A stretch of DNA of 54,073 nt from Candidatus Woesearchaeota archaeon. GTDB taxonomy: Archaea; Nanobdellota; Nanobdellia; SCGC-AAA011-G17; UBA489. Each line of letters starts with the position of its first letter. Position 1 is the stretch's first letter. The stretch spans positions 1 to 54,073 of the forward strand of contig JABHVN010000009.1 in assembly GCA_018658265.1 (NCBI GenBank), in the 5' to 3' direction. A program made the position numbers. Positions 39,001 to 45,000 of this stretch are shown piece after piece.

Positions 39001-42000
39001 GCATCCTACTTCTAACTCTTTCGTCCAACTTACTCAACCAATTTTTTTCATTAGTTATGCAAATTATAGATTTAGTGAATATGTCTTCAAACAATGTATA
39101 AAATATCTGTTGCTCATCAATTTTATCAGCTTCATCTAAAATGATTACACATGGACTTTTATTTAATATATTTGTAATCTCTTTAATTAATTCATCAGTA
39201 TTTCTTCCAGCAGTAAACCTAAAACCTAATTGATTACACATTTCCAAAACTACTTTGTAAGGCGTATCTTTTTTCCAACAATTAATATAGACTGATTTAA
39301 TGTCTCCACTCTGTTCTTTTAATTCTTCTATCAAATGTTTAGTGGCAACAGTTTTACCAACACCAGGAGAACCACTTAATATCACATTTTTACCACTTCT
39401 TCTACTAAACAATGGCTTAAGACATTGTGCAATATATCCTTGTTCACCCTCTCTGTGCTTTACTACTGGAGGCATATAATCCACATCAAGAGCAATGCTA
39501 TCTAAAAAAAGACTTTCATCTCCCCTCAACATATCATCAAAAATCCCCATAGTCTACAAATATATCTTCCCATTATTAATCTTATGCCCTCTTTACCAGA
39601 TACTTTATAATTGGTAGATATCTTTCCCCTCCTATGGAAGAAATAACCTTTATTGGAAAAAGTATGCGTATAGATAAATTTCTTATGCAGGAATTTCCAT
39701 CAGCAACCTTATCTGAAATTTTCAAATGGATAAGGACTGGCAAAGTTAAGGTTAATAGGAAAAAGCAAAAACCCGGATACAAACTAAATCCTCAAGACAT
39801 TATTCACATATTTTTATCTCAAGAACAAATCCAAGGGTATCACACAAAAGGAATTGTACATAAGACTTCATTCAATGTTTTATATGAAGATGATGATCTG
39901 TTAGTTGTAGATAAACCTCCATTCTTAGCATCCCAAGGAGGAATAGGTGTTAACGAAAATAATCTAGTAAATCAAGTAGCTTACTATTTAACTGGAGAGG
40001 TCACAATTTCATTAGGCAATAGATTAGACAAGGACACTTCTGGAATAATTATCATTGGTAAAAATCCCAAGATTAATCCATTATTATATCAATTAACTAA
40101 ATCAAGAAAAATAGAAAAGAAATATTTTGCATTAGCAATCGGAAGAATAAAAGAAAAGGAAGGTATATTCAAAGATTACCTTGTAAAGGGTACAACCAAT
40201 TTTATGCCAGTAATGAAGATTTCAAACAAAGACAATGAGCTTGCAAAATATTGTGAAACTGAATATAAAGTTGTAAAACATATAAAGAATTACACCTTAC
40301 TAGAATTAACTCTAAAAACTGGAAGAATGCATCAGATAAGAGTTCAATTATCTTCAAGAGGGTTTCCAGTACTAGGAGATAGGATCTATGGGAATGAGGA
40401 AGAAAATAAAAAAGTTTCAAGAAATCTAAAAAGACAATTCTTACATGCTTCTCAAGTAAAATTCAATCATCCAATTACCAATAAAACACTAAGTCTTGTT
40501 ACAGAATTACCTAGAGATCTTAAAAAAACACTTGAGAAAATTAAAACTCAATAACATTATCTTCTTTATTCAGTCCTACTAATCTAAAACCTAGGCCCAT
40601 TTTTATTAATGCACTAACTAATGCCATATGTTCCCTTCCATCTCCAGAAACAAAATTAACTGCTATTTCCATTCCAGTTATTTTTTCTTTTAGTTTAGTC
40701 TGGATTTCATTACTCAATTCATCTAGATTTTTAGTTGTTAGTTCAATTAACTCTACACCTTCTTCTGCCTTAAAATTTTGAATACCAAAATCATTTGTTA
40801 AAAGGTATATTTTCTCCCATTTCTCGCCACTCATGCCTTGAAGAAGTCTGTTTACGTGACCCCAAGTACCCTTGCCAGTGCTCAAAAATGCAACTAGTTC
40901 TGTCATGATTCCTAGATTATTAAGATACTTTTTAAGTTTTCCCAACCTATTCGGAAAATGCACAATCCTTCTTTTAAATCTAAAATAAAATAGCATTGTA
41001 TGAAAATTTATTTACTTTTACTTCTTGTTCTAACTTCATGCACACCTTCTTCAGAGTTAGATGGTCCTTTTTTAGTGATCGACGTAATTGATGGAGACAC
41101 ACTAAAGATAGATTCTCTTGAAAAGATTCGTTTGTCAGGAATAAATACTCCTGAAAAGAAAGAATGCCATTATCAAGAATCAAAAGAAAAATTAAATGAA
41201 CTAGTATCCAACAAGTCAATTTATCTTGAAAAAGATTACACTAACAAGGGAAGATATGGTAGGTTATTGAGATATGTCCATACAAAAGACCAAGACATAA
41301 ACAAATTTTTAGTTCTCAATGGATATGCGAAAGTTTATGACAAATATGCATACGATACTAAAAAATACAAAGAACTCAAGGAATTGGAACATATTGCAAG
41401 ACTCCAAAAATTAGGTGTTTGGACGTGCAAAGAAACAATTATAAACTAAGTTTCTAATATTAAAATATGCAAAAAAAGGTAGTTCTAGCTCCAGTAGGAG
41501 ACAATATGGGTGCATTGTATGTGGGTCTTAGAGATTTTCCTGCAAGTAGAGTAGTTTTACTAACTTCAGATAATGAGATCAAAGAAGCAGAGAAGGCAAG
41601 CAAAGAACTAAAAAAATTTGGAATTCCTGTAAAGATCATTACTATTGAAGGAGATCCATGGGAAGGAATTTTTGAAAAAGTTTCTAAACTTTCTGCAGAA
41701 GAAAAAGATGATGAAGTAATAATTAACACATCTTCGGGTGACAGAAATTTACAATGTGCAATGACTTCAGCAGCATTTGTTAATGGGCTTAAAGCATTTG
41801 CAGTTATGGGTGACGAAACAATGTTACTTCCAATTTTGAAATTTTCATATTATAAAATATTAACTGATAAAAAATTAGATATTCTTAGAGTACTTCATGA
41901 AGACAAAACTTGTTGTAAATCTCTAGAAGAATTAAGTAAAAAAATAAAGATGAGTCCTCCATTAGTTTCATACCACATTAATGGGACCTTAAAATCTGAA

Positions 42001-45000
42001 GGATTGAAAACCTTGGGTTTGATTGATGTAACTGAAAAGAATGGAAAAATAGCATTAGGCATTTCTACATTAGGGAGACTTCTAATGAAAGGGTACGTTA
42101 AATCAAAGTGATAGCTTTCAACTACATATTCTTATAAATTGCTTAAAATTTGGATGGGTCACAGTGACTAAATTAGAATTTGCTAAACAGTGTAATAAAT
42201 GTGGGTGTCCGTCCTGCGATAATGTTTTAGTTGCAGGTTTTATGTGGCTATTCTGTGCAAAATGCAAGGCCATACAAAGTTAATTTTTATTTACAATATA
42301 GAAACATTCATTGTAAAGTTCAAAATAACTAATTTTATATTTTAATCTTTTAATCATTAATTCGAACCAATTTCTTCTAGGATTATTCATTTTTCTATTG
42401 GAGATAGTTCTAGTTGGAAAACTAACAACTATATTTTTTGCATTAACTTTTGTAATGAATTCCTCTGTTTTTTTATGGTCCCTTCTCCCATAGTCCAAAA
42501 CATCTGCCATTTTTAATAAAAAGCAAACATCAAATTTATTTTTAGGAATTTGTTTAAAATAATATTTTTCGAATGCATTAATTTCAATACCTTTCCCAGA
42601 AAATCCATATTTCTTTTTTGAAAACTTAAGGTAAGCATTGATTTGTTTAACATCTTCCTTACCCGTATCCATGCCGATATATTCAAAATTTTTAAATCCT
42701 ATTTGAGGTAAGGAGAATACATTGATTCCACATCCAAAATCAAGAAGGTGTTTAGGTTGTTTTATATTTCTAAATATTTCTTCATACATATCAGAATAGA
42801 TTTCCTTTCTTTCCCTAGTTGAAGAATGGCAATGAAGTATTTTACTATGCAATTCTTCCAATTCTTCATCGCTTTTTGATTTGAGTATTTTCCCTAAAAG
42901 ATATTCCTTTTTCTTTTGATTACTTATCTGATAAACTGTGTATGTCTTATGTAAAAAATCCTTAACCTTCTTTAAAAGGGCCTTAAATTCCTTTTTATTA
43001 CTTAATTCTTCAGAATCGTATAACTGTTTAACAACCGATTTAACATAATTTTTACCTAGCCTTGAAAACTTCTTAGACTTCAAAATTTCATCAATAATTT
43101 CATCCATAATGTTTCAATAATCCCTGTATTAATATAATTATCTCCTTTAACTTCAAAGTAAATACAAAAACTTTTAAACATCTTTAACAAATATGTAGCT
43201 ATGCCTAAAAAGATTTCAAAAGATATTCCTTTGAGCGAAATAACTCTTCGTAGATATGAAAAACCTTACAAAATGCCTAAGAGAGAGGCTACAAGAAAAC
43301 TTTGTTTATCTTTAGGTTTATTACAGCCTGGTGATTCTCGTGATGTTGTAGTTGACGTTCTTCAAAGTATAGTTGATACAAGTAAAAAAAGGAAAATGAT
43401 AACTTCAGAAGAAGTTCAAAAGAAAGTAATTGCATCTAGGAAGAAAAACAAACTTAATGTTAATGGGGTTGCCTCATCAAACATAAGAAGACAAATAAAA
43501 CGTCTAAAGGATCTACAATTAATTGAAAAAATAAAGAATGAATACAGGATTGCAGAATTTGAAAACTTAGACATTGTTTTTGAGGAAAGAATAAAAAAAT
43601 ATTACTTGCCGCAAATTCTTAGCAGAGTTAAAGATTATTGTAAATTTATTAAATGATATATGGACCTAGAGAAGATTCATTCCTTCTACAGAAAATTGTA
43701 AAACAAGAAGTCAAATCTACAGATAAAGTTCTTGATATGGGGACTGGCTCTGGAATTCAAGCAATAACCGCTTCAGAAGTATCTAATGATGTTACTGCAG
43801 TAGATGTTAATCCTGAATGTATTGAAAAACTAAACAATCCTAAAATTAAGACAGTTTTATCCAGCTTATTTGCAAAGGTTGAAGGAAAGTTTGATTTAAT
43901 ATTATTCAATCCACCCTATTTACCTAGGGATCCAGACGAACCAGAAGATTCAGCTTTAGCTACAACTGGCGGAGAGAAAGGTTCTGAAATCATTGAAGAG
44001 TTCCTAAATCAAGCAAAGGCCCACTTGACTGAAAATGGAAGGATCCTCCTATTATACTCTTCATTATCTGGAAAAACTGAAGAAATAGCTAAGACGAATT
44101 ATTCATTCAATATACTGGCAGAAGAGTCTTTCGACTTCGAAAAGATATATGTGGCTAAATTGAAGATCATTACTTAGTCACCATAAGATTTATAAATCCA
44201 AATCTCAAAATAATTCTACTCAAAAACTACTCAGACACTGTCTGTGTTCCGAAAGGACGGATCAAAAATCCAGTAGTAGAGATTCAAAATGAATAACAAA
44301 GAAATAATTCAAGCAATCAAAGAAGCTAGAGAGAACGCTAAAGAAAGAAAGTTCACAGAATCTTTAGATTTAGTAATTAATCTGAAAGGATTAAACTTAA
44401 AGAAAGAAGATGAAAAAATTCTAGCATTCATACCTTTACCTCACCAAAGAGGAAAGAAAGTAAAAGTTACAGCATTAATTGATCAAGCACTAGTTACAAA
44501 AGCAAAAGCTGATTGTGACGAACATGCGTTACTTGAAGATTTTAAAAAATTAGACAAGAAAGCAATCAAAAAATTAGCAAAGAGAACAGACTACTTTGTT
44601 GCTCAAGCTAATATTATGCCAAAGGTAGCACAAACTTTCGGTAGAGTTCTAGGTCCAAGGGGAATGATGCCTAATCCAAAAGCTGGATGTGTTGTACCTC
44701 CTACAGCAGACCTTAAACCATTAGTTGCAAGATTACAAAACTTAGTAAGAATAGAAACTAAGAACGAGCAAACCATCAAAACAAGTATTGGTAGTTTAGC
44801 ATTAAAGGATGAAGAGCTTGCTGCAAATGCAACAGCAATCTATGAATATGTTGTACATCATGTACCTCAAGAAAAAAATAACATTAAAAATATTCTAGTT
44901 AAAACTTCTATGGGTAAACCAGTGATAGTTGGTGAAAAAGCGAGGTCTAAGAAATGACTTACGACCCACATATTTCTGAAGTAAAAGCAAAAGAAATTAC

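Follow-up and report, generated by a model that had tools for sequence, protein, structure and literature searches.

The window analysed here, a stretch of 54,073 nucleotides covering positions 1 to 54,073 of contig JABHVN010000009.1 (assembly GCA_018658265.1, Candidatus Woesearchaeota archaeon), carries genes for two proteins of the CARF fold, one of 121 amino acids (aa; 40541–40906, minus strand) and one of 214 aa (41467–42111, plus strand), and between them a gene for a 149-aa protein of the SNase family (41000–41449, plus strand). The three genes are probably neighbours owing to a recent rearrangement in one small archaeal lineage and do not form a dedicated three-gene system. The 214-aa protein adds a member to DUF6293/HFX_2341, a known family of Csa3-like chromosomal regulators, while the 121-aa protein, to judge from its predicted structure, is a minimal stand-alone CARF-fold protein representing a new, undescribed, class-wide single-copy family; this family is the part of the locus worth following. 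A first-pass annotation of the window had placed and sized the three open reading frames (ORFs) correctly, and had read them as a single switch in which a small ligand, perhaps a cyclic oligoadenylate (cOA), controls the nuclease.

The known role of CARF domains is, with few exceptions, to receive cOA in type III CRISPR defence, and the window has two CARF-fold proteins in a 0.6-Mb genome with neither CRISPR nor a known synthase. The DUF6293 regulator family has been studied once, in Haloferax; the 121-aa family has no entry in Pfam, NCBIfam or PADLOC and is present in single copy across a class of genome-reduced archaea, and retention in so reduced a genome generally points to an important gene. 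Knowing the ligand of either protein would reveal what a CARF pocket senses outside immunity, and could explain how nucleotide supply, redox state or replication is coupled to gene expression in host-dependent cells.

Conservation of the three-gene arrangement

The genes were followed in a sample of 151 genomes of the order, with DUF6293, SNase and gene positions counted in a subset of 47, and in the neighbourhoods of the best 80 DUF6293 loci in species-representative genomes (designated by L-numbers). A DUF6293 gene is present in 7 and an SNase gene in 24 of the 47 genomes, and all three genes are contiguous in only two of them, the window's own genome (G000; 617 kb in 47 contigs, 92% complete, G+C content 32%) and one of the same genus (G056). 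Among the 80 DUF6293 loci, an SNase gene is found within 3 kb in five and the 121-aa gene in seven; the five SNase loci all belong to one well-supported DUF6293 clade, which comprises six members counting the window. In L013 and L014 an extra gene is inserted between SNase and the regulator, and in L015 four genes, ca. 3 kb in total, lie between the 121-aa gene and SNase. Distant DUF6293 loci have neither SNase nor the 121-aa gene nearby. The linkage on which the proposed three-gene switch was based is not conserved, and the wiring in which a sensor controls a secreted nuclease is at most a local arrangement that should not be counted as a system.

The 121-aa gene and SNase are transcribed divergently from an intergenic region of 93 bp (40907–40999), in which TATA-like boxes can be read ca. 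25–28 nt ahead of the start codons, TTAAAAAG for the 121-aa gene and TTTTAAAT for SNase, and no notable repeats were found. SNase and the regulator gene are separated by a 17-bp spacer (41450–41466, plus strand), and a TATAAA box is situated at 41439–41446, within the 3' end of SNase; the regulator would thus be either co-transcribed with SNase or expressed from the embedded promoter. Co-transcription of the two in this clade is plausible from the spacing. To this extent the idea of a controlled nuclease stands, as SNase and the DUF6293 gene, 17 bp apart, may form one transcript in the clade, but the arrangement is not conserved elsewhere.

The 121-aa protein family

The 121-aa reading of the minus-strand ORF is supported by the length of its homologues, 117 to 122 aa; a 151-aa reading, which would leave only 3 bp before the divergent SNase gene, was rejected. 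The AlphaFold2 (AF2) model of the protein, a monomer like that of the 214-aa protein, has a pLDDT of 92 and comprises the elements E-H-E-H-E-H-E-H-E-E, forming a six-stranded Rossmann-like fold with a terminal hairpin of strands 5 and 6; the element order b-a-b-a-b-a-b-a-b-b is common to this model and the N-terminal domain of the 214-aa protein. In a Foldseek search of the PDB its best 23 matches are all CARF domains (TMq 0.53–0.71), including the Crn1 protein Sso2081 (7ygh, E 4.5e-4), Can2 (8bao, TMq 0.71) and Csa3 (TMq 0.65). Since the top 49 matches of the 214-aa model are likewise all CARF proteins, the CARF-like fold claimed for both flanking proteins is borne out. The window protein has no match among the Pfam, NCBIfam or PADLOC profiles, and a profile of its family compared with the sequences of solved structures retrieved no meaningful match (the best was to a lectin, E 0.42). 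Searched against 1.84 billion representative proteins, the same family yielded 322 clusters at 50% identity, all of ca. 118 aa and with no fusions.

Two loops are nearly invariant in the family, S-T-G-K-G-T-W-G-H after strand 1, which shows a GxGxxG pattern, and N-x-x-S-G-x-G-[KR]-E-H after strand 4. The consensus N84-F-[VI]-S87-G88-x-G90-[KR]91 of the latter corresponds to the CARF signature [DN]x[ST]xxx[RK] with one extra residue, and both loops are those lining the CARF pocket; Ser9/Thr10 and Lys/Arg91 are conserved. Because these two glycine-rich pocket loops are almost invariant, the most likely role of the protein is to bind, as a homodimer, some common metabolite resembling a nucleotide.

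The two CARF-fold proteins had been described as paralogues that align with each other. A remote similarity in the very register proposed earlier was recovered by hhalign between the 121-aa family and the DUF6293 N-terminal domain (P 0.0017 over 79 columns, and P 0.0011 over 84 with broader alignments; probability 15–21%; controls P 0.41 and 0.21), while BLASTP of the two proteins gave E 0.037 over 46 aa. A shared fold is supported and remote homology is probable; close paralogy is not supported.

Of the 151 genomes of the order, 136 encode a member of the 121-aa family, in single copy; a phylum-wide sample of 121 high-quality genomes, which all belong to the same class, has it in 81, with few exceptions as a single copy. 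Homologues of both the 121-aa and the 214-aa protein carry the labels Woesearchaeota or Nanoarchaeota. Within the order the gene is located upstream of the main orc1/cdc6 gene, on the same strand, at a distance of up to 7 kb in 40 of the 47 genomes and up to 100 bp in ca. 22 of them, while in other orders it was found near orc1/cdc6 in none of 30 genomes. The spacer between the two in relatives is 35–48 bp (L001, 5367–5414; L003, 5355–5389); in the window the stretch ahead of orc1 is 39551–39633. The spacer of the relatives contains a TATA box 22–30 nt before the orc1 start codon, owing to which orc1 is probably made as its own leaderless transcript. A functional operon of the two genes, first read from a spacing of 38–50 bp, was downgraded to a synteny conserved within the order, in view of this TATA box and of the absence of the linkage in the 30 genomes of other orders.

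In the window, orc1/cdc6 (38471–39550, minus strand; Pfam Cdc6_lid and AAA_22) is separated from the 121-aa gene by a gene for an RluA-type pseudouridine synthase (39634–40554, plus strand; PF00849 and an S4 domain), which is convergent with the 121-aa gene and overlaps its 3' end by 14 bp. The same arrangement is seen in L013, L015, L018–L020 and L022, and the RluA gene is absent from this position in L001–L004; it is a family-specific insertion that splits the 121-aa–orc1 pair. No direct or inverted repeats resembling origin recognition boxes were found around orc1 and the 121-aa gene (37400–43300), and scans for sigma-70-type promoters and terminators did not rise above the levels of shuffled sequence, which is what an archaeon should show. 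In other orders (L098–L127) the recurrent genes after the 121-aa gene are a convergent one for a 196-aa MTS-type methyltransferase (11 of 30 loci) and two for paralogous single-pass membrane proteins of ca. 200–230 aa (13 of 30 loci); L062 (3986–5839) belongs here as well.

The DUF6293 regulator and the predicted SNase lipoprotein

With PF19810 (HFX_2341_N) the 214-aa protein scores 44.8 bits (cut-off 30), its residues 5–117 covering positions 2–119 of the 120 in the model, and the same family is precomputed for all 120 homologues listed for it, several of which are named DUF6293 by NCBI. The PADLOC model CARF3--CARF covers its full length (E 2.9e-22) and places it in the CARF3 group. The Pfam Csa3_N match is borderline (27.1 bits, cut-off 27) and that to TIGR01884 (Csa3) falls under the cut-off (33.7 against 60.2 bits), so that the protein is not a Csa3 equivalog. 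Profiles for the C-terminal winged helix match weakly, HTH_5 with E 6e-4 and HTH_24 with E 1e-3, both under their cut-offs; in the AF2 model (pLDDT 85), residues 128–210 form the three helices and beta wing of an ArsR/MarR-like domain. The best PDB match of the model is Csa3 (2wte, E 7.6e-9), over the full length; compared with the sequences of solved structures, the profile of the protein gave only marginal matches to Can2 (E 0.012) and Csm6' (E 0.1). The segment N87-T-S-S-G-D-R93 fits the CARF signature [DN]x[ST]xxx[RK]; N87 and D92 do not vary in the family, and G91 and R93 are shared by 90% or more of its members. The Csa3 architecture read from the sequence in the first pass is therefore upheld. 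Such a regulator in a CRISPR-free setting has a precedent: HFX_2341 of Haloferax mediterranei, Csa3a-like by HHpred, is vertically inherited and found in CRISPR-less species, and deletion, overexpression and RNA-seq identified it as a CRISPR-independent global repressor whose deletion de-represses many genes, notably those of nutrient transporters (PMC11434293).

The cOA-binding pocket of Csa3, which accommodates cA4, is marked by the Lintner motifs T-h-G-F-[ND]-E-x4-R and L-x2-G-h-R (quoted in PMC8699464). Compared by sequence position, G11 and N13 of the first motif and G91 and R93 of the second are kept in DUF6293, while Phe10 and Met97, which pack against adenine in Csa3, correspond to Asp12 and the invariant Asp92. 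As both adenine-packing residues are aspartates, the ligand of the regulator is probably not cA4. The options judged most likely are a different phosphate-bearing molecule, since the Gly-x-Arg phosphate contact is kept while both adenine-packing positions are Asp, or a redox input. The latter is suggested by conserved cysteines, namely the invariant Cys97 and a Cys149–Cys150 pair present in at least 90% of members of the DUF6293 alignment, and by frequent thiol-redox neighbours: such genes occur within 3 kb in 30 of the 80 loci, coding for glutaredoxin (20), DsbA-type proteins (10) or thioredoxin reductase (7).

A source of cOA was sought in the whole genome. The Cas10/Csm1 model TIGR02578, positive in 8 control genomes, reached at best 14 bits in the 617-kb genome against a cut-off of 170, and no SMODS (CD-NTase) match was found there. 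A repeat–spacer scan of all 47 contigs detected no CRISPR-like array; the only candidate flagged, at 37290–37455, is a coding tandem repeat inside a 120-aa ORF. This ORF (37147–37509, plus strand) contains nested tandem repeats with periods of 12, 15 and 27 nt and exact words spaced 63 nt apart. No cas genes were present in the DUF6293 neighbourhoods inspected. What was reported for the window, that it has no cas gene, array or cyclase, thus extends to the genome, which, at 92% completeness, likely lacks cOA synthases; cOA is unlikely as the ligand of either protein.

Many DPANN members of the DUF6293 family share a putative operator. Of 78 loci, 22 have the perfect palindrome TTAAT-N-ATTAA within the 150 nt upstream of the DUF6293 gene, in most cases between −48 and −63 and beside a TATA box. 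Its density there, 1.89 per kb, is ca. 70 times that of the remaining sequence of these loci (0.026 per kb), and it is a likely candidate for an autoregulatory operator of the family. It is present in neither 40907–40999 nor 41450–41466. Its one copy in the window lies inside the FmrO-like gene described below, a chance-level occurrence, and of the three copies in the genome none is informative; an operator or regulon of the window's regulator based on the palindrome was rejected, there being no site at the locus and no regulon predictable for the genome.

The 149-aa protein matches the whole of PF00565 (E 2.8e-19; 70 bits, cut-off 21), and also the PADLOC SNc+LTD model (E 1.8e-15) and NCBIfam NucI (E 6e-13, far under the equivalog cut-offs). 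The lipobox nuclease announced between the two CARF genes is real: the N-terminus, MKIYLLLLLVLTSC, is a signal peptide with the lipobox L-T-S-C at residues 11–14, whose cysteine is kept in five orthologues, and two further cysteines are conserved in the orthologue alignment. The motifs D-G-D-T, R-x-x-G-I-x-x-P-E and Y-G-R are all seen, with R44, E52 and the arginine of Y-G-R present. Across the clade, Asn replaces the Asp of the usual D-x-P-E, which we take to be the calcium-site residue in Staphylococcus aureus nuclease numbering. A homologue of bacterial-type Lgt, encoded in the genome (contig C36:2505–2993; tblastn E 6e-32, 40% identity), fits the lipobox; genes for a glutaredoxin (C36:4562–4780) and a VKOR-like protein (C36:10714–11019) lie near it. 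From these features the protein is an ordinary SNase, probably a membrane-anchored and extracellular nuclease.

The genes discussed belong to the region 38.4–44.3 kb of the AT-rich window. Downstream of the regulator lies a gene for an FmrO/Rmt-like methyltransferase (42280–43107, minus strand), recognised by Pfam and NCBIfam profiles, and beyond it follow, in this order, genes for a 151-aa protein, a small methyltransferase and ribosomal protein L1. The 275-aa FmrO-like product, a homologue of the FmrO/Rmt family of 16S rRNA (G1405 N7) methyltransferases, scores 146 bits with NF000466 (cut-off 250) and 63 bits with Pfam FmrO; its gene is found at the same place in L013 and L015, and it is probably a housekeeping rRNA methyltransferase.

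Proposed explanation, alternatives and known systems

The explanation favoured here is that three separately evolving genes became neighbours within a single small lineage of DPANN archaea of the Woesearchaeota type (Nanoarchaeia). By analogy with HFX_2341, the regulator would be a chromosomal, CRISPR-independent repressor, in which a dimeric CARF domain binds a small ligand and thereby repositions two winged helices on DNA; as the genome encodes neither Cas10 nor a CD-NTase, this ligand would not be cOA made by either. The SNase would serve as a lipoprotein-type extracellular nuclease for scavenging nucleic acids in a host-dependent cell and, located 17 bp upstream of the regulator gene, may share its transcript and its autoregulation, a local and not a conserved feature. 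The 121-aa protein would bind its nucleotide-like metabolite, with orc1/cdc6 as its stable neighbour in the order; its main role cannot depend on the regulator, since its gene is near-universal and DUF6293 is present in 7 of 47 genomes.

Several observations weigh against this explanation. SNase precedes the DUF6293 gene in five of the six members of its clade, which is compatible with real co-regulation, and the linkage of the 121-aa gene with orc1 may be an inherited gene order at the level of the order, not a sign of function. The two CARF-fold families have, moreover, become adjacent at least twice independently, divergently in the window's own clade and again in L062, L077 and L091, a separate clade of the DUF6293 tree, where the 121-aa gene directly follows the DUF6293 gene; in L062 and L077 the stop of the regulator gene overlaps the 121-aa start, and in L091 the tblastn match begins a few bases after that of the regulator. 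In these genomes it is the only copy of the 121-aa gene, and in a complete 1.8-Mb chromosome it lies 750 kb from orc1. The chance probability of two such juxtapositions is roughly estimated at 0.03–0.13, varying with the lineages counted as independent, and a functional link between the two CARF-fold proteins is possible. They could form a functional pair, SNase being only a passenger or a target in this clade. The small protein would then buffer or break down the ligand sensed by the regulator, or compete for it, as Crn1 ring nucleases do for Csa3 and Csx1; alternatively, it would enter mixed dimers with the CARF domain of the regulator. Besides the repeated adjacency, such a pairing is favoured by the weak, specific profile similarity of the families, by the stand-alone ring nuclease Sso2081 being the best fold match of the small protein, and by the invariant residues of its two loops, Ser/Thr after strand 1 and Lys/Arg after strand 4, at positions which Crn1 enzymes use, an equivalence judged from sequence. 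Nevertheless, the small protein occurs in ca. 90% of the genomes of the order against ca. 15% for DUF6293, and in 73 of the 80 DUF6293 loci its gene is not within 3 kb, which leaves such a pair unlikely. Extending it to all three genes, as one switch in which cOA or a similar messenger controls an extracellular defensive or scavenging nuclease, is far less credible still. The CARF folds of both proteins, the contiguity of the genes around a shared divergent promoter region and its retention in the genus and near relatives speak for such a switch; yet Cas10, SMODS and CRISPR arrays were not found in the genome, the trio is absent outside one small clade, with the 121-aa gene near-universal and DUF6293 and SNase patchy, Asp stands where the Csa3 pocket packs against adenine, and a secreted nuclease would be an odd output for an intracellular alarm signal.

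A different alternative concerns the 121-aa protein alone, which could be a generic small Rossmann-like, nucleotide-binding housekeeping protein of the GxGxxG type whose likeness to CARF stems from a shared minimal fold. No CARF profile of Pfam, NCBIfam or PADLOC matches it, the Foldseek E values are modest, with Rossmann halves of glycosyltransferases and epimerases appearing among the matches from E 9e-3 on, T-G-K-G-T-W-G fits the classical dinucleotide-binding pattern, and the gene belongs to the core of genomes devoid of cOA signalling. We regard this as doubtful, given that the best 23 fold matches are all CARF domains with the typical terminal beta-hairpin, that the second conserved loop follows strand 4, where the CARF signature lies, and that PF19810, matched by 4 of 48 family members (E 0.04 or weaker), is one of only three families with weak Pfam matches to at least four of them, the others being PF18856 (6) and PF07314 (6). 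Going beyond the favoured explanation of separately evolving neighbours, the CARF fold might have been taken over for housekeeping signalling in CRISPR-less DPANN archaea, with the class-wide 121-aa protein as minimal sensor, buffer or hydrolase of a common nucleotide-type signal made without Cas10 or CD-NTase, which DUF6293, where present, would read and feed into the control of nutrient scavenging by SNase, of thiol-redox genes or of replication initiation through orc1; this proposal is speculative and, on present evidence, rather improbable.

Among known systems, the SNase is related to the PF00565 family (NucI/EcnA type), whose domain it matches end to end with the three motifs named above, and it differs in the archaeal lipobox signal and in the Asn before P-E, presumably in place of a calcium-binding Asp. 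The 121-aa protein resembles Crn1 (Sso2081, Sso1393, Sis0455, Sis0811) in being small and essentially a CARF domain (7ygh, E 4.5e-4; 7z55, E 4e-3), with Ser or Thr in the loop after strand 1 and a basic residue in that after strand 4. Crn1 enzymes degrade cA4 produced by type III systems, and the residues with assigned roles in them are S11 and K106 (PMC9638899); the conserved Lys forms part of the pocket floor. Unlike the 121-aa protein, Crn1 proteins have 180–270 aa with extra C-terminal parts and are always linked to type III CRISPR, while here there is neither CRISPR nor a cOA synthase, no sequence-profile match, and a vertically conserved single-copy core gene of an archaeal class. Csa3/Csa3a of Saccharolobus solfataricus (2wte, 6wxq, 6w11; CARF3) has in common with the regulator the full-length fold (E 7.6e-9), the combination of CARF and winged helix, and the Gly-x-Arg of motif 2; the differences are an identity of ca. 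16%, a TIGR01884 score under the cut-off, the change of Phe10 and Met97 to Asp, and a genome with no type I-A or type III cas genes and no source of cA4. HFX_2341 is 308 aa long against 214 aa here, and the host here is a DPANN archaeon; many DPANN members have the TTAAT-N-ATTAA palindrome upstream and lie near thiol-redox genes, and in the regulator's own clade the gene follows SNase. The regulator resembles HFX_2341 in that its N-terminal domain matches PF19810 above the cut-off, in the Csa3-like fold and in a chromosomal location with no cas genes nearby, and its CRISPR-free genome has a counterpart in the CRISPR-less haloarchaea in which the family is also found.

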